In this document: positions 1,136-28,747 of the stretch, one piece after another
Layout of the letters: every line of letters starts with the position of its first letter
Position numbering within the stretch: position 1 is the first letter of the stretch
From: an uncultured Pseudomonadota bacterium
GTDB lineage: Bacteria; Pseudomonadota; Alphaproteobacteria; RF32; CAG-239
Length of the DNA: 35,513 nt
Assembly: GCA_902795745.1 (NCBI GenBank)
Contig: CADBMG010000057.1
Span: 1 to 35,513 of the forward strand
Direction of reading: 5' to 3'
Notes under the pieces: generated by a model
What the model was told of the DNA's origin: nothing
What the model saw: the letters and a program-made list of their open reading frames with translations, nothing else
Database searches by the model: none
Program-made: the position numbers and the translations under genes

Positions 1136-1281
1136 TCCGCTTACATGGCATCATCAATATAAACATCAAGCGGCAATTTGCCTGCTTTTTCTTTTAAATA
1201 GCAAAGTCATGCCTCGTTTTCCGAGAGAAAAACGTCAAGGCATCTTCAAATTAATAAAATATAGCGCTACGCAAAGATAAG

Positions 1282-1358
1282 ATTCCTTGACGCACGGACA
1301 CGCCGTGCCGTGCGAGGAATGACACAAAAAATGATGCCTGCAAACCGCGAGGAATGAC
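1282..1358. repeat. GC-rich 13-bp interrupted hairpin plus a 12-nt direct repeat GCGAGGAATGAC (1312-1323 and 1347-1358) in a long non-coding gap
   Basis: ATTCCT(1282-1287)/AGGAAT(1315-1320) and CGCACGG(1291-1297)/CCGTGCG(1308-1314) pair. The 12-mer recurs 35 nt downstream. Read directly from the sequence. Confidence 0.4.
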
Positions 1359-9286: not shown

Positions 9287-10279
9287 ATGATGAAAAAGTT
9301 TTGTTTTATCGTTTTGAGTTTGAGTTTTGTTGCCACTGCGGTACATTCGCGATTACCGGAATATGACGATGATGCGGAATTTGATTATTGTTTGCGCTTA
9401 TCAAACGATATAGATCAATGTGTACAAGAAGAAACACAACGAGTACTTAACAGCGTTAAGCAAAACTATCGTGATATATTGGGTAATCGCAAGTTGTTAG
9501 CGTGGAATGGTTCAATGGAGGCCAATACCTCTATGTTGCGTGATATGTATGAGGGTTGGACCGCATATCGCAATCGTTTATGTTCGCTTTCCGAAGCGGC
9601 AGCCGTTAACTTGGAAGCAATTATCACAACCAAATATTCTTGTACTTTGTATCATACTTTACATCATAATGCTCATTTGAATGGCATTTTAGAGTTACTC
9701 AATTATAAAGGGGCAAAGCATAATCAAGATTTTACATTGTTTAAAGTTTATGAGCATGACAAGGAATATATAAATTGTCGTCAACAAGAGAAAAAAACTA
9801 AAAATGAATGTGTGAATGCTGAATTAGAGCGTTCTACTCAAAAAGTCAAAAATTTATACAATACATTTTTGAAAGATGAAAATGTTGGTAATTGGAACAA
9901 TGGTCCGGATTTGAAAAATGGTAATTATCGTGATATGTTTGATAGCTGGATTGCTTATCGCAACAGGATTTGTAATTTGGCGGCGTGGGCTTATAGAAAT
10001 GCCGATATTGAACCGAAAGTAGATGTGAAGGAATGTATTTTGTTTTTAACTGACGAGCATGCGGAAGTATTAGGTAATATTCTGTTTGCGGCGCACAGTT
10101 CTTTGGATGTCGGATTTGAGGATGGTTCCGATTGGGAAACTGATGGCGGATTAGCTGAAGGTAAGACCGTAACGCCTCTCAAAAGGAGAATTGAAAATGA
10201 CACACCGCTGATTGACGAAACGAAATCGGCGGAAAAACCAACTGATACCGGCAGAAAAACACCGGCATGGGCAATGTAA
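9287..10279 (+). CDS. Secreted protein with two LprI/DUF1311-like repeats
   Basis: Signal peptide MMKKFCFIVLSLSFVATAVHS. Duplicated motif MYEGWTAYRNRLCSL / MFDSWIAYRNRICNL. GGAG lies 6 nt upstream. Confidence 0.55.
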   Translation: MMKKFCFIVLSLSFVATAVHSRLPEYDDDAEFDYCLRLSNDIDQCVQEETQRVLNSVKQNYRDILGNRKLLAWNGSMEANTSMLRDMYEGWTAYRNRLCSLSEAAAVNLEAIITTKYSCTLYHTLHHNAHLNGILELLNYKGAKHNQDFTLFKVYEHDKEYINCRQQEKKTKNECVNAELERSTQKVKNLYNTFLKDENVGNWNNGPDLKNGNYRDMFDSWIAYRNRICNLAAWAYRNADIEPKVDVKECILFLTDEHAEVLGNILFAAHSSLDVGFEDGSDWETDGGLAEGKTVTPLKRRIENDTPLIDETKSAEKPTDTGRKTPAWAM

Positions 10280-10339: not shown

Positions 10340-11242
10340 TTAATGTTTGATAAGTTCGCTTTTATCGAATGTATAGCTTTGTCCACAGAAATTGCAGGTT
10401 GCGGTAATTTTTCCGTTTTCCGCCAATGCTTCAATATCTTCGTGTTTCATCGCGCTTAATGTGGCAAACAGCTTATCCTTGCTGCAACGGCATTCAAAAT
10501 GATATTCGGTTTCTTTAATAACAGATACTTTATGCTCGTGGTATAAGCGATACAAAATATCTTCCAGCGGCAGATGCGAATCAAATATTTCTTCATCACG
10601 CAAACTGTCGGTCAAGATTTTATCTTCATTCCAAACTTCGGTTATATTTGTTTCATCCGTGGTTTTTTTGCCTCCGTTTGAAGGCATTTTTTGAATCAGT
10701 ATGCCGGCGGCCGACCAATTTCCATTGCTTTTTTGCTGCACAAACAATCGTAAATGGGTATCTATTTGTTCTGATTGCTTGAAATAGCGTTCGGCACATT
10801 CTGCCAAATTTTTACCTTGTAAATCGACAATTCCTTGATATAAATCGGTATTTTTACCTTGATCTACCGTAAAAATCAAACTGCCTCGTCCCAACCAATG
10901 CGGAGTTGCTTCCAATTCTCCTTCGGTTTTGCGCAATTCCTGCGCTTTGAGCATTTTTTGCTCATCAAACTTAGCGGCGGTACGTACTGCACCTTTGGAG
11001 GTTACATCTGTTACCAACACCGAAATCGGTCCATCACCTTGCATTTGTAATGTAAAATATCCATCGTATTTCATCAAATCTGCCAACATAACACCCAGTG
11101 CCGTAGTTTCAGCAATAGCTGCGGCAACATTTTCTGGATATTGGCGCGGAGCAAAAATATCGGCAATAACATTATCAAGTCTCACGATGCGACCACGGAA
11201 AGAATTGTCATCCAAACTGAAAGAAATACACTTATCGTTCAT
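10340..11242 (-). CDS. hslO: Hsp33 redox-regulated chaperone
   Basis: C-terminal zinc centre CRCSKDKL...CNFCGQ (CxC...CxxC). Length 300 aa. Confidence 0.85.
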   Translation of the reverse strand: MNDKCISFSLDDNSFRGRIVRLDNVIADIFAPRQYPENVAAAIAETTALGVMLADLMKYDGYFTLQMQGDGPISVLVTDVTSKGAVRTAAKFDEQKMLKAQELRKTEGELEATPHWLGRGSLIFTVDQGKNTDLYQGIVDLQGKNLAECAERYFKQSEQIDTHLRLFVQQKSNGNWSAAGILIQKMPSNGGKKTTDETNITEVWNEDKILTDSLRDEEIFDSHLPLEDILYRLYHEHKVSVIKETEYHFECRCSKDKLFATLSAMKHEDIEALAENGKITATCNFCGQSYTFDKSELIKH

Positions 11243-11313: not shown

Positions 11314-11886
11314 GTGTTTGATGAAGATAATCTGTCAGATACATCACAAAAAAGTTCTTATAAGCGCAAGCCGCAGAAAAAAATTACACTGCAGCGGCTG
11401 AAAAATATCGCGTTATATTATCTTAAACGCTACGAATCTTCGGTTGAAAATCTGCGCGGCGTTTTGATGAGACGAGTTGACGCTTACTCTCGCGAAAATC
11501 CGCAGTGGAATAAAGCAGAGGCTTATCAATGGATTGAAGAGATTTTAGAAAATTTTGAGCGATTACATTACTTAGATGACAATCGGTTTACTCAAATAAA
11601 AGTTCGCAGTTATTTGAATGCCGGAAAACCGGCTCGCTACATTCAAGAAAAATTGCGACAAAAAGGAATAGATGCTGCCGCAATAGAGGCTGTTTTGCAA
11701 GAACAGGATTATAATCCCTTACAAATGGCTTTGAAGTTGGCTAAGCGTAAGAAAATAGGGCCATATCGCGAACAAAATTTACGTCGCGAGTATTGGCAAA
11801 AAGATATGGGAACGCTGATTCGTGCCGGATTTGATTATGATGTGGTGTGTCAAGTTTTGAATATGGATAAGGCAGAAGAGAAATAG
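11314..11886 (+). CDS. recX: RecX-like regulatory protein
   Basis: Helical-repeat protein of 190 aa with RecX-like segments (ALYYLKRYESSVENLRGVLMRR, RYIQEKLRQKGI). GTG start with AAGGAG 9 nt upstream. Confidence 0.65.
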   Translation: MFDEDNLSDTSQKSSYKRKPQKKITLQRLKNIALYYLKRYESSVENLRGVLMRRVDAYSRENPQWNKAEAYQWIEEILENFERLHYLDDNRFTQIKVRSYLNAGKPARYIQEKLRQKGIDAAAIEAVLQEQDYNPLQMALKLAKRKKIGPYREQNLRREYWQKDMGTLIRAGFDYDVVCQVLNMDKAEEK

Positions 11887-11929
11887 TTTTAAACAGACTT
11901 GTGTCTTAGCGCGATAACATTTATGATAC

Positions 11930-11958
11930 TTGACTTTAAAAGATTTTTTATTTAATCT
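11930..11958 (+). promoter_or_regulatory. Island promoter P1 (TTGACT-17 nt-TAATCT), with a perfect TATAAT further downstream at 11974-11979
   Basis: Hexamers read from the sequence. It is homologous to P2 at 12426. Confidence 0.5.
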
Positions 11959-12010
11959 CTGCCTCAGAAAATCTATAATTATAAAACATTAAACTTAATA
12001 TTATTAGAGT

Positions 12011-12355
12011 ATGGAAAAAACAAAACTTTTCAACTTGGCGGGAAAACCGGTAGAGTATGAAAGCTGGAAATTTGATGAAGCGGAAGTTCTTAAAGCCGCA
12101 GAGAAATTTTTCGGGTTTGCGGTAACGGCTTATCCCTGCTTTTTATCAAAAGACAGTGTTTGGAGAGAGTACGAATTAGGATGGACATTTGACCAGCCCG
12201 ATAACCCGAAAGGGAAAAGGTTTATGGTCGGTTTTCTGGGTTTTGATACGGGATTTAAAAAGTATGGTTTTTCCAAATCCGTTCGACCTTGCAACGGCTT
12301 AACCTTTATGGGATGTACCATTGCTCTTGAAAAAGGAAAAATTGTTTTAAAGTAA
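12011..12355 (+). CDS. Hypothetical protein (114 aa), no recognisable motif
   Basis: ORF with a balanced, globular-looking composition. It is bracketed by P1 and terminator T1, which begins 6 nt after the stop. Confidence 0.6.
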   Translation: MEKTKLFNLAGKPVEYESWKFDEAEVLKAAEKFFGFAVTAYPCFLSKDSVWREYELGWTFDQPDNPKGKRFMVGFLGFDTGFKKYGFSKSVRPCNGLTFMGCTIALEKGKIVLK

Positions 12356-12360
12356 CCTTG

Positions 12361-12398
12361 TCCCCCGCCGCTTAACCGCCGCGAGGGATTTTTGTTGT
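12361..12398 (+). terminator. Intrinsic terminator T1
   Basis: GC-rich imperfect hairpin TCCCCCGCCGC-TTAACC-GCCGCGAGGGA, followed by TTTTTGTTG. Confidence 0.65.
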
Positions 12399-12425
12399 CA
12401 TGAAATTTTTTTTGTAAAAAAATAC

Positions 12426-12455
12426 TTGACTTTTGTCTATGGGGGGGGGTAAACT
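12426..12455 (+). promoter_or_regulatory. Island promoter P2 (TTGACT-18 nt-TAAACT) with a G9 homopolymer (12441-12449) inside the spacer
   Basis: Read directly from the sequence. It is paralogous to P1, where the spacer is 17 nt and has no G tract. Confidence 0.55.
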
Positions 12456-12520
12456 CTGAGCATAAAATCAAATTATAATGTTTTTTATTATTTTTATTAT
12501 TAAGAACCTCACGACAAGGC

Positions 12521-13426
12521 GTGAGTAAATGTTTGCTTATGAATATAAAAGGACAGCTTGATTCGGTGAGCCTCAAACAGTTTGGAGTTCCCGAAAATTT
12601 TGAGCATTTGTTTGACGATGTTTATCAGGGGGAAGACGGTGGTATTTACATTGCTCAGGCAAATATAGTCTCTGTTCCGTCGATGCATCTGCTCTCGAAA
12701 GGTGGCAAAGCCTACCCCATTCGCAATGCGCCGGAAATTACTGCAGAGATAGTCGAATTGCACAAGCAACTCTACACTCCGACACAAGCCGGCGAAAGAC
12801 TGAAAATTGCTGTGGGTGCCGCTTATCACCAAAATGAGAATGCTCGTTTCAAATTTCTCATTGAAAAGCAGTATCACCTTGCCATACCGGGAATTGTACC
12901 TGACGATTATTCGTTTGAGAAAGCTTACGAATATTTGGTGTTTGCTCCAAACTTCAACACCGTTTGCTCCGATGCGATTTCTGTTGAGAAAGGCGGTGCT
13001 TCCATCAAGGCCTTGTTTGCTAGCGGCCGTCTGTTGGTTGCAAGTAAAGATTGTTACGAGGCTATCGACTTTGTACCGATTTTCGAAACCACTGACGGTA
13101 AGACTATCTTCTGGGTCGGAGGCAAAGAACTTGCTCTGGCTTCTATAGTTTTCAACCGGCTGTGTTTCAGCCATTTGGGAACTTTCAAGAAGTTCACGCA
13201 AACAGCTGTAAACAATCTCATTGAAGTGAGGAATAAAGATCATTTTAACTTGTATCATCTGGGATCAACCATTGAATTTGTGGCGTGCGCGCCCTTTGAA
13301 TACGGGTTTGAAATTGATGTTGCTACCGGCAAGGTGGTTTGTTACTCTGCATATAGCTGTGACGGAATGAATGAATTCAGCAGAACCTTCCTCTTTGAAG
13401 GCGGAGAATATAAAATGAGCCTATGA
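12521..13426 (+). CDS. Hypothetical protein (301 aa from GTG 12521, or 295 aa from ATG 12539), no recognisable motif
   Basis: Long ORF downstream of P2 with a globular composition. Sampled lines are G+C-richer than sampled housekeeping genes. The plus strand is favoured over the antisense ORF by the promoter/terminator orientation. Confidence 0.65.
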   Translation: MSKCLLMNIKGQLDSVSLKQFGVPENFEHLFDDVYQGEDGGIYIAQANIVSVPSMHLLSKGGKAYPIRNAPEITAEIVELHKQLYTPTQAGERLKIAVGAAYHQNENARFKFLIEKQYHLAIPGIVPDDYSFEKAYEYLVFAPNFNTVCSDAISVEKGGASIKALFASGRLLVASKDCYEAIDFVPIFETTDGKTIFWVGGKELALASIVFNRLCFSHLGTFKKFTQTAVNNLIEVRNKDHFNLYHLGSTIEFVACAPFEYGFEIDVATGKVVCYSAYSCDGMNEFSRTFLFEGGEYKMSL

Positions 13427-13551
13427 GTAATGAAATTACCATCAAGCAAATGTGCAATAATCTGGATACATTGAGCGATTGTGGTTACGCGCTTTTGACT
13501 GAAAAGTCCAATGTTGTCAGAGCTGACAATTATTTGAAGTTATACTTCTAA
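13423..13551 (+). CDS. Untracked 42-aa ORF (MSNEITIKQMCNNLDTLSDCGYALLTEKSNVVRADNYLKLYF), translationally coupled
   Basis: Its ATG overlaps the upstream TGA (ATGA at 13423-13426). The ORF exactly fills the gap to terminator T2 and ends 26 nt before the hairpin. Confidence 0.4.
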   Translation: MSNEITIKQMCNNLDTLSDCGYALLTEKSNVVRADNYLKLYF

Positions 13552-13576
13552 TCTACGGCTTTATCAGCATTTATGC

Positions 13577-13616
13577 TCCCCTTACAGCCTAACCGCTGTA
13601 GGGGATTTTTTGTTGC
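13577..13616 (+). terminator. Intrinsic terminator T2 (paralogue of T1)
   Basis: CCCCT(T)ACAGC-CTAACC-GCTGTAGGGG is a 10-bp stem with one bulge, followed by T6 and GTTG. Confidence 0.75.
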
Positions 13617-13812
13617 TATAAATAAAAATAATTGAAATTTAAGGGATTCAATGTTATAGCTGGCTAAAATAAATCAAAAGAGCAATTTTAACATGGAAAA
13701 GAACGTAAAATATCTGCATTGGCACAGTTTTTGGGATAGTTTCATTTTATTTTATATTTATTAATTTGAGGACCCGGTCAAAATAAGCCTCGTTAAATAT
13801 TCCGGTTGTAGT

Positions 13813-14241
13813 ATGAATAAGTATGATGCGTTAGATTATGCTATGCAGAAGAATAAAGTATGGTGGAATGGCATGCTGGTTGCAACATTTTTATCTATGG
13901 TTTTTCTTACTCTGGCCTTTTTTTCCGGAGCAGGAACTGCGGCTAGCGATATATATGCCGGAAGACAGCCTGAAATATCTATGTTCACTGATGTGTGCTT
14001 TTTCGTCGGTGCATTGGATGCCATTTGTGCACTCATATACTTTGTTATATGGTGTAAGAGGATAACTTCTGACATGTCTTGCAAAGATACAGAGGACTTT
14101 GAAAGATACAAAGAAGATGTTCGCAAAGGTAAATACGGCAAAAGCGCAATTGTATATGAAGAGTCTACTATGGATGAGATCTTAGATCCAGAACGTTTCA
14201 AGCCTCATAATTGGAAAGAACGTTGGTTCGGATTTTTGTAA
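13813..14241 (+). CDS. Hypothetical 2-TM membrane protein (142 aa) with a charged C-terminal tail
   Basis: Two hydrophobic helices (MLVATFLSMVFLTLAFFSGAG and VCFFVGALDAICALIYFVIW), then a K/E/D-rich tail. No clear SD. Confidence 0.5.
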   Translation: MNKYDALDYAMQKNKVWWNGMLVATFLSMVFLTLAFFSGAGTAASDIYAGRQPEISMFTDVCFFVGALDAICALIYFVIWCKRITSDMSCKDTEDFERYKEDVRKGKYGKSAIVYEESTMDEILDPERFKPHNWKERWFGFL

Positions 14242-14252
14242 TATGGCAAATT

Positions 14253-14284
14253 AAAAGCTCTGATTTTATATCAGAGCTTTTTGT
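14253..14284. terminator. Bidirectional intrinsic terminator
   Basis: AAAAGCTCTGA/TCAGAGCTTTT is a perfect 11-bp stem flanked by an A-run and a T-run, between convergent genes. Confidence 0.8.
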
Positions 14285-14322
14285 ATATGTTTTTAGTTTT
14301 ATTGCCATTATTTGATTATTTT

Positions 14323-14727
14323 TTAAAGAATTGTGCGAATGCCAAGCAGGCATAAAATCAAAATTCCTGCTGTTGCTCCCCAAACCCATACTCCGGAGCC
14401 TTTGTAGGATTTAGCAGTTTTATACAATCCTCTCAAAACAATAACCATATAGGCACCAAAACAACCGCTCACAATCAAGTGCAACATTAGCATGGTAGCG
14501 ATTCTTCCGCCGCGAATCAGTAAATTGATAAAATGCGAACCGATATAATAAATTACATTTAAGTTCTGTACACAATATCCGCTGGAGCGCGCCTTTGCAC
14601 ATACGGCTTGGGCAAAAGAACCATGGGTTATACTGACAATCAGTATGAAAAGTAAAAATCCTAAAACACCGAATCCGAAAAAAACTTTAGCAAGTGAATA
14701 TTCTCCGGCAATTAGTTTTTTCAGCAT
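14323..14727 (-). CDS. Small polytopic membrane protein (134 aa), unknown function
   Basis: Three to four hydrophobic helices. It is the last gene of a long minus-strand string. Confidence 0.55.
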   Translation of the reverse strand: MLKKLIAGEYSLAKVFFGFGVLGFLLFILIVSITHGSFAQAVCAKARSSGYCVQNLNVIYYIGSHFINLLIRGGRIATMLMLHLIVSGCFGAYMVIVLRGLYKTAKSYKGSGVWVWGATAGILILCLLGIRTIL

Positions 14728-14749: not shown

Positions 14750-16465
14750 TTAAAAATGCGATACAATATTAATATACGGTCTGATACCTAAATTTTTCTT
14801 AAAATTGGCTATATATTCATTCATTTCTTTCCATGCAGTCCAACGATCAACAAAAACTTTGGCCGTTTCCGGTGATTTAGAAAGTTGAACTTTAATTATT
14901 TCTTTTAACAATTCTTGACATCCTGACTGCATTTTATCGAAATCTATGTGCAATTTTTTATTGTCATCAAACCAAAATGCACCGTATTCGCTCAAGAAAT
15001 TATATTCAATCAAATCAGCCACTCGGTGTGCTTCCATATCTGCCGGAAAAGCAATCATAAAGTGGCGACGAATAATCCATGTGGTATAGATTTTTTTAAG
15101 CAGTTCGTCGTTGATAATACCATTTTTAACGTACTGTGGCATCATTGCAGCGGAAATAACGTCAGCCTTGTGTTCTTCAATAATATGTTGATAAACTCCG
15201 AGAGCAGTTTGATAACTGCTGTCCGGTCCGAGCGAATGTCCGTTTTCGTGCCCTATGGTAAACAAATGATCTGCCTCTTCATCATAGTATTTATGCAAAT
15301 CAGCAGAAACGAGACCATCAAGAATCTTTTTAATTTTTTCTTTATCGGAACCGGCTCTTACCTGACGATGATAAACATTACGTCGTCCACCGCCGTGTGA
15401 CAATGCCGGTTTGTCGTTGTTAGGCAGATTTTGCGCTGTGGTAATACCTCCGCGACACAAAGCATAATCACCGGTTAGTGCAACAATATCGGCATCTACC
15501 ATAGTCTGCTTTAATCCCTTTTTCCCTCCTACGTTTTGTGCATACGTGTTCGAGAAAGGCATTAAATCGGCTAATTTAATCATTTCATCTTTAAATTTTA
15601 ACAGTAATTCTGTTCCTTTTTTATTAACAATTCCGACACGAATGCCAAGCATATCTTTGGGCACAGGTTTAATGTTGAGTTTGTTCAAACGCGCACAAAG
15701 TTCTTTATTGGTAAATATTTTAGGCGTCAGCTTATCGTCATAGTTTTCACGACTGATTGTAAATTCCAAAGGCGTGTCTTGCATTTGCGCCCAATGTTTA
15801 TCAGCCAAAATATCCATTTCTTCATTGTTTTGCAACAATGCTTGCGCCTGCCAACCAAGGTAATCTTTAAACAATTCATCTGTCGTAAAATGAGCGGCAC
15901 ATTCCAATTCATTAGCTATTTCTGAGAATTCATCAGCAAAATATTCTGTATAATCAATAGCTTTTAATTCATTGCCTTCGCGACGAACCATTGTTCTGGC
16001 ACTTAAAATTTTCTGTACTTGTTCCGTTTTTCCAGCATCAAGCATTTGACCTATAATGGTAAAAAGTTCTTGCTCGTCTAAATCGGTGGGGTAAAAATTG
16101 CGACCTTCATAAGCATGAATACCTTCAAATATTTCTACCGGTTCCTTATCCAATCCGTTATATCCGACTACACCGTTGAGAGAATTAAATAACTTTAAGG
16201 CATCCGCGGCATAAGAACTATCGGCAGCAGCAACTTCCAAGGCCTGTTTTTGCGTTAAATTGAGAGGATGATCCATTTCCAAAGCAACATCATTCATAAT
16301 TTTTGCGGCATTTACTAAGTATCTCAAAGCTTTTTTATCTCCATCACTGAGTTCCAAATAACTTTGATTGTTCTCATCTATCAGCTCAATTTTTCGCATT
16401 TGGTTTTCAATGCGATTATGTAAATCTGCTTCGTCGATATTAATTTTAAATCCGTTAATTTTCAT
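14750..16465 (-). CDS. Zinc hydrolase of the M49/DPP3-like family (NUDT3 C-terminal-domain type)
   Basis: HENGHSLGP (HExxH variant) followed by EEHKAD, matching the two zinc-binding motifs of DPP3-like enzymes. Length 571 aa. Confidence 0.6.
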   Translation of the reverse strand: MKINGFKINIDEADLHNRIENQMRKIELIDENNQSYLELSDGDKKALRYLVNAAKIMNDVALEMDHPLNLTQKQALEVAAADSSYAADALKLFNSLNGVVGYNGLDKEPVEIFEGIHAYEGRNFYPTDLDEQELFTIIGQMLDAGKTEQVQKILSARTMVRREGNELKAIDYTEYFADEFSEIANELECAAHFTTDELFKDYLGWQAQALLQNNEEMDILADKHWAQMQDTPLEFTISRENYDDKLTPKIFTNKELCARLNKLNIKPVPKDMLGIRVGIVNKKGTELLLKFKDEMIKLADLMPFSNTYAQNVGGKKGLKQTMVDADIVALTGDYALCRGGITTAQNLPNNDKPALSHGGGRRNVYHRQVRAGSDKEKIKKILDGLVSADLHKYYDEEADHLFTIGHENGHSLGPDSSYQTALGVYQHIIEEHKADVISAAMMPQYVKNGIINDELLKKIYTTWIIRRHFMIAFPADMEAHRVADLIEYNFLSEYGAFWFDDNKKLHIDFDKMQSGCQELLKEIIKVQLSKSPETAKVFVDRWTAWKEMNEYIANFKKNLGIRPYINIVSHF

Positions 16466-17684
16466 TTTTTATCTCCACTGCCTTAAATTTGTAATATTTA
16501 AATTCCGATTCATTCAATTTACCAATAATTCCTGCTTTTGATTTTAGGCGACTGATAATTTCAGTCCATTCCGTCGGTCTTTCATTTGCTAAAATCAGTG
16601 ATTTGTATCCTTTATAGAACAAATAAACACCGTCATCAACATCTAAATCTGCCACTTGCGGTATAATTTCTTCCTTATCGGTTAATAAGTAAAGTTTGAC
16701 ATTTTTTGCATCAATATTTTTGTGTACAAAACGTTGCGCCATACGAACCAAAGCAACAACAATGCCTGTATTATCAGCCACTTTTTCAAAAGTATCGCTC
16801 TTGGCATAAAGTGTACCGCGATCATATAGCCGATATGTGTCTTCTGATTTCAGCGGCCACATAGGAGGGAGATTATCTTTGCTGCGAGCTAAATTTATGT
16901 TGAACCAATACCATAAAGAAACTCCATAACGTTGAACATATTGTTGCAAATTGTATTTTTGCTTTATAGGTAAAGGTTGTTCTTGGTTGTTTTGCATAGC
17001 AAATAATGCCGAATAATCTTTTTCCAATGCCTGAGCAATTTGTGTATCAATCACATCAAATACATTCATATTAAAGTGATATTTCTGCGCAAAATTAATT
17101 GCCTTATCAACTAAAATGTCATTTTTATCTGTCAGATTTGTCAGCATAACAACCATATTTTGCGGTTGTTGCAAATAGCTTTCTATTGCCTTTTCAATAT
17201 GCTCTTCGTTCTTGTTAAGCTCTAATGTAACGATATCAGTCGGTTTTATCACACTATCCAGAAGAGTTGCATGACCTGACAAGTCACTACGGCCAGCGTG
17301 AACCAGTGCAATTTTGGTAATTTTATTATATTTACGTATTTCTCGGTAAAGTCGTTCGACAACTTCTATACTGTCCTGATTTAAAAATTTGGGAACAATA
17401 ACTATTTTAACATGTTTTTTTTTGTAATTTGCCGAATGATTCAAATACATAGAAACATTATCTTGCAGCATGTTTTTATCAGAATAGAAAATAGCTGCTA
17501 TAACGGGTTTTATTTCGTTTTTTGTTTCGCGTACACGACCATATTCAACGGCTTTTTCATAGTTGGCAAAAATATTGTGATTAAAGCGTTGCCAATTGAT
17601 GTGTCCAATCATTGCGGCAAAGATTAATAATGTGCCCCAAAAACAGATTTTCTTTATTAAAATACCGGTTTTGCGCTTGGCCAT
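16455..17684 (-). CDS. N-terminally membrane-anchored protein (409 aa), unknown function
   Basis: GGAGAA lies 5 nt upstream of the ATG. One N-terminal TM helix (ICFWGTLLIFAAMIG). No catalytic motif recognised. The stop overlaps the downstream start by 11 nt. Confidence 0.55.
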   Translation of the reverse strand: MAKRKTGILIKKICFWGTLLIFAAMIGHINWQRFNHNIFANYEKAVEYGRVRETKNEIKPVIAAIFYSDKNMLQDNVSMYLNHSANYKKKHVKIVIVPKFLNQDSIEVVERLYREIRKYNKITKIALVHAGRSDLSGHATLLDSVIKPTDIVTLELNKNEEHIEKAIESYLQQPQNMVVMLTNLTDKNDILVDKAINFAQKYHFNMNVFDVIDTQIAQALEKDYSALFAMQNNQEQPLPIKQKYNLQQYVQRYGVSLWYWFNINLARSKDNLPPMWPLKSEDTYRLYDRGTLYAKSDTFEKVADNTGIVVALVRMAQRFVHKNIDAKNVKLYLLTDKEEIIPQVADLDVDDGVYLFYKGYKSLILANERPTEWTEIISRLKSKAGIIGKLNESEFKYYKFKAVEIKNEN

Positions 17685-26313: not shown

Positions 26314-27624
26314 TCAACTCAAATAGTCATTAATTTTGCTCAATATTTTTTTAGCTTCGTTAATTTGTGCTTTCATATTCAAATCGGAATAAACGGAAAT
26401 GGCGGAATTATAGTAGTTTTTTGCTTCTAAGAAAAATTTTTCATCATCGTTTTGTTTACCGAGCAAATAATAAATCTTGCCTATTTTTTCCTGAATATCT
26501 GCCCATTCTGACGGGTATGTTGTTTGGTCATAAATTCTTTGCTGATTTTTATAACTGTCAATCGCCAATTGCATAATTGTTGCACTTTTAGTGCTCATAC
26601 CGAGCGAAGCTAAATAGTAACCGAGAAGACCTTCAACATGACACCAAGACTGTGGAAACTGTGCCAAAGAATATACTTTTTCGGCATCACGCAACTGAGA
26701 AACTGCATCACGCAAAGCTTGTAAGTCAAGAGTATGTTTCCACAATTCAAAATGCAAAAGTGCCAAATGATACGAAAGCATGCCGTAATCATAAGGATAG
26801 TTGCGATTAAGATATTTTTGTGCTTCTTGAAAATTAGCTATGGCAATTTTGAGATATTCAAAGCTGTTATCTTTGCCGGAGGAATAGGCTTTGGCGTACA
26901 ATTGTCCCAAGTTTGCATATACGCAACCGTAATAAATAGGTAATCGCATATATTGACGGTTATTTAATGCTTCATCGAATAAATTGGAAATAATTTTAAT
27001 ATCTTTATCGCTTAAGTTTTCTACGGTATTACATAAATATATTTTACCTAGCATATTCATAATATATGGCATAAACTCGCGGGAAATATCTTTGGGAGCC
27101 GCATCTTTGGCTAAAATAGCAATAATCTCGCTTAAAATATGCGGTTGATGTCGACGCTGTTCTTCGGTTACGGGGACTATTGCCGCGACAATAATCGCAT
27201 ATATCAACATTAATACGGAATTGGAAAATTTTTCCGGATTTGCAAAATAACTTAATGGTAAAAACAGACTGTCCAGCAGTGAAAAGGTCCATTGATTAGG
27301 AATAACATATTGATTTTTTACCTGAAAATTGAGGCGGATTTTACCGTCTTCTTCGTATCCCCAAACTAAAATATCAGAGTGAGTACTACTGAGAATTTTA
27401 TTGCCACGGTCAATAAAATCGAAGAAATTACGTCCTTGCAAATTGAGAAAACTTTTAGAAAAAGGCTCATTAAAAAAGTTTACATCAAACAATTCATTTT
27501 GTTTCAATACTTCGGCAAAACGCAATCCGCAATTCAAGTTGCACTTATCTTCAAATGCCACTACCGTTATTCTGAATAGTCCGTTCAGTGATGCTGCGGG
27601 AGTTGAAGTTCTAAACAGTTTCAT
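26314..27624 (-). CDS. Uncharacterised 436-aa protein: unknown N-terminal domain, central hydrophobic segment, C-terminal TPR-like helical repeats
   Basis: Hydrophobic stretch SVLMLIYAIIVAAIVPV. Repeated Y/A/L-rich helical pairs (YANLGQLYAKAY, AIANFQEAQKY, YHLALLHFEL, IGKIYYLLGK, AKNYYNSAISVY). Confidence 0.5.
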   Translation of the reverse strand: MKLFRTSTPAASLNGLFRITVVAFEDKCNLNCGLRFAEVLKQNELFDVNFFNEPFSKSFLNLQGRNFFDFIDRGNKILSSTHSDILVWGYEEDGKIRLNFQVKNQYVIPNQWTFSLLDSLFLPLSYFANPEKFSNSVLMLIYAIIVAAIVPVTEEQRRHQPHILSEIIAILAKDAAPKDISREFMPYIMNMLGKIYLCNTVENLSDKDIKIISNLFDEALNNRQYMRLPIYYGCVYANLGQLYAKAYSSGKDNSFEYLKIAIANFQEAQKYLNRNYPYDYGMLSYHLALLHFELWKHTLDLQALRDAVSQLRDAEKVYSLAQFPQSWCHVEGLLGYYLASLGMSTKSATIMQLAIDSYKNQQRIYDQTTYPSEWADIQEKIGKIYYLLGKQNDDEKFFLEAKNYYNSAISVYSDLNMKAQINEAKKILSKINDYLS

Positions 27625-27628
27625 ATTG

Positions 27629-28702
27629 TTATTTATCCTCTTTTGATATTTTCAGAGCATCTTTTGCAGCCTGAATGTTTTGCTTTAAATCTTTTACAAA
27701 CGCCTGATTAATTTCTTTTAGGTTTTTAGGCTCGTTTTTATCGGAACGACCGAAGGAACTATTGAGCCACAAAATAATCAATAACGTAATCAGCGGCATT
27801 GAAAATGTATTGACTGAAAAAAGCTGGAACCATGCCAAAAATACATTAACTGTACAGATTTTTGCAATATTGATAGCTAGGATGTGGTGTGAATATTTGG
27901 TAGCAGCCTCATAATAACAAGTGTTTTCAAGCAAGTTTCCCGAATGAGTGACAAAATAGCGATACCATAATGCCGAGAGCAATTCTGCCCAAAATACACC
28001 GGTTAAAACAGCGCAAGACATAAAACTAAACTCGCCTATTTGCAAAATCAATAAATAAAAAACCAAAAAAGCAACAGCAGCACATGAACCGCAATCCATG
28101 TTAATTTTTGCTCCATAATAATTGATATTGAGAAATGCCATCAGTATACCGAGAAGAATCGTGGCACATAAAGCACTAAACATCGGGATTGCTCCGATTA
28201 TGCCCAAAACTATCAACCCGAAAAGTATTGCCAATAAAGGAATGGCAAAGGCCTGAGTTGTACTGTTCATCAACCTGTATAACAAACAAAAAATTACGCC
28301 GAATACAACAATGGCACAACGTACAATATTTACATCCAACTTCGGAAACGGCGAACCGTCGCCTATCGGCTGCATCCAAACCGCCAGCCCTACAGCCACA
28401 ACTGTCGTAAGCATGAAACCGATACGCGATTCGATAAGCGAGGCTATATAAATTATCAATGCCAAGCCAATTGGTAAAATGGCTCTGGAAAAAGTTAACG
28501 GTTCAATAAAATCATGGTTATCGAGCAAAAAATAAGCTGCAACACTGCCTACTGTATAAAATGTTAAGACATACCATAACGGCAACATCCAAATCTTAAA
28601 TTGCAACGTTTGCATATATTTTTTTACCACCGGAGCAAATGATATATACATTGCTATAAAACCGCAAATTGCAAACAACAAAATCATTAATGCCGCATTC
28701 AT
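27629..28702 (-). CDS. Polytopic inner-membrane protein (about 357 aa, about 10 TM), unknown function; faint resemblance to MraY/WecA-type transferases
   Basis: AAGGAG lies 6 nt upstream of ATG 28702 (the track GTG 28708 abuts the SD). It is hydrophobic throughout. The NINYYGAKINMDCG segment only loosely recalls the NxxNxxDGxDG loop. Confidence 0.5.
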   Translation of the reverse strand: MNAALMILLFAICGFIAMYISFAPVVKKYMQTLQFKIWMLPLWYVLTFYTVGSVAAYFLLDNHDFIEPLTFSRAILPIGLALIIYIASLIESRIGFMLTTVVAVGLAVWMQPIGDGSPFPKLDVNIVRCAIVVFGVIFCLLYRLMNSTTQAFAIPLLAILFGLIVLGIIGAIPMFSALCATILLGILMAFLNINYYGAKINMDCGSCAAVAFLVFYLLILQIGEFSFMSCAVLTGVFWAELLSALWYRYFVTHSGNLLENTCYYEAATKYSHHILAINIAKICTVNVFLAWFQLFSVNTFSMPLITLLIILWLNSSFGRSDKNEPKNLKEINQAFVKDLKQNIQAAKDALKISKEDK

Positions 28703-28747
28703 TGTCACCTCCTTGCTATCAATTTAATATACTCTAACACTAATTTA

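Follow-up and report, generated by a model that had tools for sequence, protein, structure and literature searches.

Phase-variable promoters in which a mononucleotide tract lies between the -35 and -10 hexamers are known from porA of Neisseria meningitidis (poly-G), from opc and fetA of the same species (poly-C), and from vlp of Mycoplasma hyorhinis (poly-A). Repeated elements that form terminators are likewise known, both as the inverted repeats of DNA uptake sequences (DUS) in Neisseria and as repetitive extragenic palindromic (REP) elements in enterobacteria. The locus described here, from an uncultured rumen alphaproteobacterium, bears a likeness to both. It lies in a contig of 35,513 bp that was analysed in its entirety (hereafter the window, to which all coordinates refer), between recX and a convergent gene for a 134-amino-acid (aa) membrane protein (p134), and its plus strand carries open reading frames (ORFs) of 114, 301, 42 and 142 aa (p114, p301, p42 and p142). 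On balance, positions 12396-14239 are probably a strain-variable accessory islet at a fixed site, expressed from a promoter that is itself probably phase-variable and carrying cargo that has partly decayed. Labels of the form L0xx denote contigs and loci from other rumen samples, related metagenome-assembled genomes (MAGs) and rumen metagenomes.

Exact-sequence look-ups of p114 and of the 134-aa gene yielded 16 further contigs of the same species from other rumen samples, with flanks 98.5-99.9% identical to the window. At least five arrangements are seen between recX-p114 and the 134-aa gene. The window shares the order p301-p42-p142 with L012, L013 and L022, while L025 has nothing in the variable segment. 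A third arrangement consists of a gene for an M3 oligoendopeptidase (592 aa, Peptidase_M3) with the right flank directly after it, its left side represented by L019-21 and its right side by L029, L030 and L035. L026 carries a 140-aa gene, a 114-aa lipoprotein-like gene, the M3 peptidase gene and p142, and in L027 and L028, in which the left side is not assembled, a terminator and a promoter are followed by p142. This comparison of the recX flank bears out the proposal of a first-pass annotation of the sequence that the region is accessory, with 12396-14239 being absent (L025) or replaced by the M3 peptidase gene (L019-21, L029/30) or by other small genes (L026) in contigs whose flanks share 98.5-99.7% identity with the window. 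The limits that had been given for the island, 11887-14290, were nevertheless wrong: p114 adjoins recX in all haplotypes and, being present in every arrangement, is therefore part of the conserved flank, leaving 12396-14239 as the only segment that differs in content among strains of the species. On the right, the bidirectional terminator past p142 is kept in all haplotypes, and p134 was found in 9/9 same-species contigs, whatever adjoins it, with a low ratio of nonsynonymous to synonymous differences (pN/pS).

The positions at which the haplotypes part ways are equally consistent. The 10-bp sequence GGATTTTTGT occurs in exactly two copies in the window, flanking 12396-14239, and in L025, L029 and L030 window position 12395 is joined to 14230 across this direct repeat. 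The first-pass annotation had reported no integrase, transposase, tRNA or flanking direct repeat. The first three are indeed absent, since neither an integrase or transposase domain (Pfam) nor a tRNA (tRNA scan) was found anywhere in the window, but the flanking repeat had been overlooked. As regards a prophage, insertion sequence or integrative element, no mobility gene, tRNA or PHROGs match was found, and the 10-bp repeat is the only such feature present. The haplotypes diverge at 12393-12398, and the terminator-plus-promoter unit that lies there in the window is present twice in L026, behind p114 and again behind the M3 gene. All haplotype breakpoints found are module edges, being located just past the terminator T, just past the -10 hexamer, or inside the T-run repeat. 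Therefore, the repeated modules are the candidate substrates of rearrangement. Furthermore, synonymous divergence (pS) is raised beside the locus, reaching 0.28 in recX (L026 5392-5964 against window 11314-11886) and 0.10 in Hsp33 (L025 2881-3783 against window 10340-11242), compared with ~0.01-0.03 in other genes of the same contigs. On these alignments, the raised flank divergence suggests tracts imported by homologous recombination.

Several short-read contigs also end or diverge at this point. L010 and L011 stop at window position 12390, and L019-L021 and L023 end or diverge only a few bases away from T. Breaks of this kind would be natural if T were a repeat at least ~31 nt long, or a point at which haplotypes branch in the assembly graph.

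The second line of evidence comes from the promoter in front of p301, which was found by promoter scan as a consensus match only (TTGACT at 12426, an 18-nt spacer, and TAAACT at 12450). The spacer ends in nine consecutive G residues, the sole G/C run of seven or more in the 35.5 kb. The length of this tract differs between assemblies, being G9 in the window and in L022, G10 in L026, G11 in L028 and G12 in L027. Across 11,070 bp, 28 substitutions separate L027 from L028, and the only indel between them is the G tract. The terminator-plus-promoter unit (window 12361-12458) is found directly upstream of p142 in L026, L027 and L028, the shared sequence ending just past TAAACT. A mononucleotide repeat thus lies within the -35/-10 spacer and is polymorphic in length among close strains while the surrounding DNA is stable, as is characteristic of contingency promoters. 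By its sequence, the tract bears the signature of a hypermutable simple-sequence repeat, and the p301 promoter is probably phase-variable. Switching would then take place within populations, with transcription set by tract length. The earlier suggestion of contingency expression gains support from the four tract lengths (9, 10, 11 and 12) seen between near-identical strains. A scan of Joint Genome Institute (JGI) rumen metagenomes gave no match to the G-tract promoter.

As in porA, opc, fetA and vlp, the homopolymer is placed in a sigma-70-type spacer and differs in length between very close strains; the tract is, moreover, unique in its surroundings, and the downstream genes are accessory. 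The differences are that the host is an uncultured rumen alphaproteobacterium whose locus is known here from sequence alone, that the tract promoter precedes different genes in different strains (p301 in the window, p142 elsewhere), and that p301 is not an obvious surface protein.

Three hairpins followed by U-runs, all GC-rich and placed past a stop codon, have the features of rho-independent terminators. Hairpin T (12362-12387) has an imperfect stem with a folding energy of -14.8 kcal/mol (z -2.9), hairpin T2 (13578-13604) one of -17.7 kcal/mol (z -4.7), and the bidirectional Tbi one of -15.6/-15.7 kcal/mol on its two strands. The first-pass annotation had described self-contained transcription units; the three terminators on which it relied are real, but its promoters carry less weight, as promoter-like matches are no commoner than in shuffled sequence. 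T reads CCCCCGCCGCTTAACCGCCGCGAGGG plus a T-run in the window, the module being given as AATCCCCCGCCGCTTAACCGCCGCGAGGGA plus a T-run, and it is near-fixed in sequence: it is 95-100% identical in loci whose proteins share only 40-66% identity. Its 20-mer core recurs exactly in 27 stretches of JGI rumen metagenomes (L032-L058), always a few bases past the stop codon of unrelated genes. T2 (CCCCTTACAGC-ctaacc-GCTGTAGGGG plus a T-run) is orthologous to the terminators behind a 99-aa gene in L001 and L014. Like DUS inverted repeats and REP elements, T forms a terminator, and its sequence hardly changes among many unrelated genes or from one species to another. Conversely, it is sparse, with one exact copy in 35 kb, and confined to clusters of small accessory genes, and nothing seen ties it to DNA uptake or to a RAYT transposase.

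A separate intergenic palindromic element lies at window 1206-1324 (…ATTCCTTGACGCACGGACACGCCGTGCCGTGCGAGGAATGAC…). It is 77-87% identical to L001 1023-1141 and L005 15579-15640, and similar sequence follows the T element in L037 and L043. It looks like a repeat of the REP or miniature inverted-repeat transposable element (MITE) type that is common to several species.

In front of the genes, two further modules were recognised. M1 is a promoter/leader of ~100 nt (TTGCTT-17-TAAAAT ... TATAAT ...) that ends in the hairpin CTCACG-N6-CGTGAG, which in the window reads CTCACG-acaagg-CGTGAG. The distance from this hairpin to the ATG is exactly 13 nt, without gaps, in 14/14 sequences. All six base pairs form in every sequence, two of them by compensatory changes (to CTCGTG/CACGAG) in three loci, and no shifted-register pairs were found among the aligned sequences. 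Such compensatory changes, together with the fixed position relative to the start codon, are the marks of a structured 5'-leader RNA, which the alignment thus predicts here; alternatively, the hairpin may be a palindromic DNA operator. A search of the whole window against Rfam at gathering thresholds gave no match. M1 is conserved upstream of all p301 homologues, and it also precedes an 88-aa member of the 99-aa family (L005), a family of 128-145 aa (L006, L008) and the M3 peptidase gene in a related species (L042, L047). In this related species the peptidase gene carries the leader hairpin, whereas in the species of the window it has the M1 promoter and lacks the hairpin (L019 480-612; L026, reverse strand upstream of 3846).

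M2 is likewise ~100 nt long and near-fixed in sequence right up to the ATG, with the form TTGACT ... TTTAAGG ... AGAAAATCTATAATTATAA ... TATTATTGCGT-ATG and no Shine-Dalgarno sequence. Its single copy in the window precedes p114, with TTGACT at 11930-11935 and TATAAT at 11974-11979. Elsewhere it stands before more than 10 unrelated small ORFs, many of which encode membrane proteins (L036, L040, L041, L044, L046, L048, L050, L052, L054-L056). Within the window M1, M2 and T are confined to 11966-12525, and in relatives they are clustered in arrays of small genes of 2-7 kb. Across the clade, promoter/leader and terminator modules, as recognised by alignment, bracket unrelated small genes and coincide with rearrangement breakpoints.

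The largest product of the variable segment, p301, is a real member of a rare family for which no structural or sequence-family relative was found. A word-indexed search of 5.8 billion proteins returned six relatives, and an exhaustive hidden Markov model (HMM) search of 1.84 billion representative proteins returned 29 clusters of 260-340 aa, with identities down to 18%. All p301 relatives in species-representative genomes belong to rumen MAGs labelled Alphaproteobacteria or proteobacterium (RGIG5018, RGIG3536, RUG10918, RUG13901 and MAG-R073). The last of these is one of two alphaproteobacterial MAGs that were placed by their authors in the uncultured orders Rs-D84 and RF32, and that have reduced metabolic repertoires (PMC8992543). 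Alignment of 13 homologues with their upstream DNA places the conserved start at ATG 12539, giving a protein of 295 aa. The upstream GTG at 12521 was rejected as the start, as it falls within the leader hairpin and is missing from loci that have the variant form of the hairpin; ATG 12539, by contrast, is invariant. The protein is full-length and 63-66% identical to its orthologues, consistent with purifying conservation.

Only T222 is invariant in the family, with a few glycines, one valine and one tyrosine nearly so; there is therefore no evident catalytic motif. Neither a signal peptide nor a transmembrane (TM) segment was predicted for p301. An initial AlphaFold model built on a six-sequence alignment was too weak to use (predicted local distance difference test, pLDDT, 63) and was set aside, while a 33-sequence alignment gave a pLDDT of 85.8 and a predicted template modelling score (pTM) of 0.78. 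This model shows a small N-terminal sheet, two helices and then ~20 beta strands. Foldseek comparison of the latter model with PDB and BFVD returned propeller proteins only, at TM-scores of 0.16-0.23 and root-mean-square deviations of 13-25 Å, and a sequence-profile search of PDB returned nothing. The local geometry is similar to the blade-like beta-meanders of WD40, Kelch, sortilin Vps10-domain and S9-peptidase propellers. However, the best query-based score (TMq) is 0.23 where ~0.5 is needed, there is no profile match, and the N-terminal alpha/beta part is extra. Membership of the beta-propellers was accordingly rejected, on the low TM-score and the absent profile match. No consistent match to Pfam, NCBIfam, PADLOC or PHROGs was found among 33 family members, the sole PADLOC match being to a methyltransferase in one member (E = 0.002). 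From the model, p301 is most likely an intact cytoplasmic, mostly-beta protein with a role in binding and not in catalysis.

The family is often tandemly duplicated as divergent paralogues (L001, L006, L008). Its homologues in relatives occupy another, conserved site beside a PF15891-type gene and yceG, or lie behind a major facilitator superfamily (MFS) gene, and a distant member in L017 stands alone among housekeeping genes. A further family of 135-165 aa with a C-x-x-E-C-D-V-E-like N-terminal motif and no Pfam match travels with p301-family genes (L003 4418-4912, L015 3-449, L026 4339-4761, L054); in L026 it sits at the recX site.

Two of the remaining sequences in the segment are relics. 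The p42 product is 71% identical to residues 57-98 of the protein encoded by the 99-aa gene located behind the p301 orthologue of L001 (50% to that in L014), and DNA alignment with the 99-aa gene loci shows ~190 nt to be missing at p42. Judged by these alignments, p42 is a truncated remnant of this 99-aa gene, which in relatives lies behind p301. Further downstream, 13693-13764 encodes MEKNVKYLHWHSFWDSFILFYIY and then a stop codon. In a tblastn search with the 384-aa MFS_1 protein of L005, this stretch is 71% identical over the first 25 residues of the query, and 13587-13755 is ~73% identical to the terminator, intergenic region and MFS start of L002, L005 and L009, the loci in which the 384-aa MFS_1 transporter gene precedes p301. 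By the same kind of comparison, 13693-13764 is a relic of an MFS transporter gene.

Homologues of p142 are limited to same-species copies, at least 90% identical, and its translation shows two hydrophobic stretches. The possibility that p142 is a diverged piece of the MFS gene was rejected, there being no similarity beyond the upstream 23-codon stub. Homologues of p114 are similarly limited to same-species copies (96-97% identical). Between strains they show 3-4 nonsynonymous and 0-1 synonymous differences, small numbers that give a pN/pS of ~1, compared with 0.1 or less in neighbouring genes; these counts suit either neutral or diversifying evolution of p114. The 114-aa gene found ahead of p301 in L001/L015 was rejected as its counterpart, being an unrelated multi-TM protein of equal length.

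The four ORFs of the first-pass annotation do exist, and none of their products matches Pfam, NCBIfam, PHROGs or PADLOC. Under a codon model derived from the window's long genes, each has its top coding score in its own frame, at values of 0.10-0.23 compared with 0.31-0.43 for housekeeping genes. That nearly every other sizeable coding sequence (CDS) shows a family motif was overstated, however, as four large ones on the minus strand also lack a Pfam match: 14750-16465 (571 aa), 16455-17684 (409 aa), 26314-27624 (436 aa) and 27629-28708 (359 aa). Orphans are thus encoded outside the island as well, and one of them, the 571-aa protein, has a GHENGH (HExxH-like) motif. The earlier argument from base composition fared similarly: the line counts on which it relied (29, 29, 20 and 22 G+C) are exact, but the contrast stems from the lines selected. 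The G+C content of p301 is 0.44 (0.45 at third codon positions, GC3), within the top 5% of 888-bp windows, and housekeeping stretches reach 0.45-0.47; the variable segment as a whole is at 0.394, compared with 0.384 for the window. Composition is thus a weak argument for horizontal transfer, only p301 being mildly G+C-rich.

How these observations are best explained depends largely on what occurs with what. It had been proposed that the four genes form one undescribed functional system, moving together and serving defence/anti-defence or host interaction. All are indeed orphans with promoters and terminators of their own, the locus, in common with defence hotspots, differs from strain to strain, and p301 and its 99-aa partner are adjacent in L001 and L014. 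Yet this pair is the only one of the components to co-occur, and its second member is truncated to the p42 remnant in the window. Moreover, p114 stays where the rest is gone (L025), p142 is found without p301 in L026-28, p114 and p142 are limited to the species, and the p301 family lacks both in every other genome. A role in defence finds no more support, since PADLOC matches none of p114, p301, p42, p142 or p134, the p301 family matches no defence, phage or curated model, no domain of effector type, such as an ATPase or nuclease, was detected, and the genes around the family do not make up defence islands. A single four-gene system is therefore very improbable, and is largely refuted by the co-occurrence data. 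By analogy with the acquired interbacterial defence clusters of gut Bacteroidales, in which immunity genes are gathered in variable arrays, the p301 family and the small genes beside it might instead be orphan immunity genes, or genes of some similar role in antagonism. The tandem divergent paralogues in L001, L006 and L008, the small cytoplasmic beta fold of binding type with no conserved catalytic motif, the strain variability and the arrays of unrelated small genes would all suit such a role. However, ~50 loci yielded neither a toxin gene nor a secretion-system marker nor a known immunity domain, the genes have no associated recombinase, and the distant member in L017 has only housekeeping genes around it. 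This reading, which is drawn from analogy only, appears quite unlikely.

A different explanation would be that the region is simply a decaying intergenic zone, made up of gene fragments and of spurious or neutral ORFs, in which the G-tract differences are assembly noise. Both p42 and the MFS stub are remnants, p114 has a pN/pS of ~1 and, like p142, no homologue outside the species, and homopolymers are error-prone in short-read assemblies. Pure decay is nonetheless contradicted, because p301 is intact and conserved (full-length, 63-66% identical to its orthologues, with a confident fold and its conserved leader kept), because the modules are conserved beyond neutral expectation (95-100% between species whose proteins are 40-66% identical), and because indel variation is confined to the G tract, which accounts for the one indel separating L027 from L028 over 11 kb and has four lengths. 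All four ORFs, furthermore, score best in their own frame. Decay as the whole explanation is thus unlikely. Some of the same observations do weigh against a phase-variable accessory islet. Two relics and the pN/pS of p114 would suit a region in decay no less than one under selection, and the differences in tract length could in part stem from homopolymer errors in short-read assemblies. Tract length also tracks haplotype, G9 occurring with p301 and G10-12 with p142. The observed spacers of 18-21 nt all exceed the optimal 17 nt, which G8 would give, and promoter-like matches number 11, against 12.0 +/- 3.8 in shuffles. Finally, p301 has neither signal peptide nor TM segment and would be unusual cargo for a classical contingency locus, and no recombinase lies nearby, cassette exchange being proposed from breakpoint positions only.

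The strain-variable islet with a probably phase-variable promoter nevertheless remains the reading that we favour. The locus would be an assembly of short transcription units, every one of them preceded by a promoter/leader module and followed by a terminator hairpin. Units would be added, removed or swapped by homologous recombination between the repeated modules, and microhomology-mediated deletion at GGATTTTTGT would also remove them, leaving different strains with nothing, with the M3 oligoendopeptidase, with p142 alone, or with p301-p42 plus p142. Slipped-strand changes in the G tract (9-12 residues, spacers of 18-21 nt) would switch or tune the transcription of whichever gene is downstream, and the 6-bp M1 leader hairpin, fixed 13 nt from the start codon and common to the p301 family, the 99-aa family, the 128-145-aa family and the M3 peptidase, would add post-transcriptional control. 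In this scheme p42 and the MFS stub are decay products and p142 a small membrane orphan. A bolder extension, which we consider rather unlikely, is that rumen alphaproteobacteria of the Rs-D84/RF32 type possess an integrase-free cassette system, in which the modules flank unrelated small genes, recombination shuffles these at hotspots such as the recX site under the poly-G promoter, and the M1 hairpin is read by an RNA-binding regulator that coordinates the whole cassette set. Such a module-mediated system, if true, would join gene-content variation with phase variation.

The features of the locus are collected in Table 1. Outside it, a secreted 330-aa protein with two LprI (lysozyme-inhibitor-like) repeats is encoded at 9287-10279 on the plus strand, upstream of Hsp33.

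Table 1. Features of the recX-p134 locus, in window coordinates
Feature	Position	Strand	Description
M2 promoter/5'-UTR (untranslated region) module before p114	11930..11995	+	sequence recurring before other genes
p114	12011..12355	+	species-restricted orphan, conserved left flank
Terminator T	12362..12395	+	repeated element, recombination breakpoint
Left copy of 10-bp direct repeat GGATTTTTGT	12386..12395	+	one of two window copies
Strain-variable segment, ~1.84 kb	12396..14239	+	promoter, p301, p42, T2, MFS relic, p142
Sigma-70-like promoter TTGACT-18 nt-TAAACT	12426..12455	+	promoter scan, 9/12 matches
Homopolymeric G9 tract	12441..12449	+	candidate phase-variation switch in promoter spacer
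Distal part of M1 promoter/leader	12463..12541	+	TAAAAT 12463-12468, TATAAT 12474-12479, hairpin 12508-12525, ATG 12539
p301 (295 aa from conserved ATG; ORF 12521-13426)	12539..13426	+	rare uncharacterised mostly-beta family (predicted)
p42	13423..13551	+	truncated C-terminal remnant of 99-aa gene, by alignment
Terminator T2	13578..13610	+	variant of T
MFS transporter gene relic, 23 codons then stop	13693..13764	+	upstream intergenic region from 13587
p142	13813..14241	+	two-TM membrane orphan; last four codons overlap right repeat copy
Right copy of GGATTTTTGT	14230..14239	+	inside end of p142
Perfect 12-bp bidirectional terminator (Tbi)	14253..14281	.	between p142 and convergent 134-aa gene
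134-aa membrane protein gene (p134)	14323..14727	-	conserved right flank

A genome-reduced, uncultured rumen alphaproteobacterium thus keeps a hotspot of strain-level variation in gene content, and the hotspot carries an apparent simple-sequence-repeat switch, a strategy best known in host-adapted pathogens. The p301 family, the candidate new 5'-leader RNA motif and the near-fixed terminator that marks accessory clusters provide handles for mining rumen metagenomes, as well as concrete targets for studying how these bacteria vary their accessory genes.

Among described systems of variable gene content, the locus compares with the plasticity zones of Helicobacter and the integration hotspots of Enterobacteria, which it resembles in its conserved flanks, in the alternative gene content among conspecific strains, and in the raised divergence of the flanks, consistent with recombination imports. 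It differs from them in being very small (0-4 kb), in containing no integrase, tRNA or mobile-element genes, and in having its breakpoints at short regulatory modules that are repeated and at a microhomology of 10 bp. The comparison with integron cassette arrays is similarly divided. No IntI or other recombinase domain was found in the 35.5-kb window or among the called genes of the related loci examined, and most units carry their own promoter. The hairpin looks like a GC stem plus a T-run terminator and probably not like an attC site with paired R''/R' core sites: an RYYYAAC-like heptamer (GCTTAAC) is present in T, but it is placed in the loop and away from any paired end, a GTTRRRY partner was not seen, and the hairpin is followed by a T-run. 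Like integron arrays, however, the locus consists of small, mostly orphan genes, each with an imperfect hairpin repeat behind it, its content varies between strains, and one upstream promoter serves the adjacent cassette. Strain-variable islets and simple-sequence-repeat promoters are both already known, and the locus offers an example of them in an uncultured lineage, together with three components that are as yet unnamed: the p301 family, the M1 leader hairpin and the T terminator repeat.

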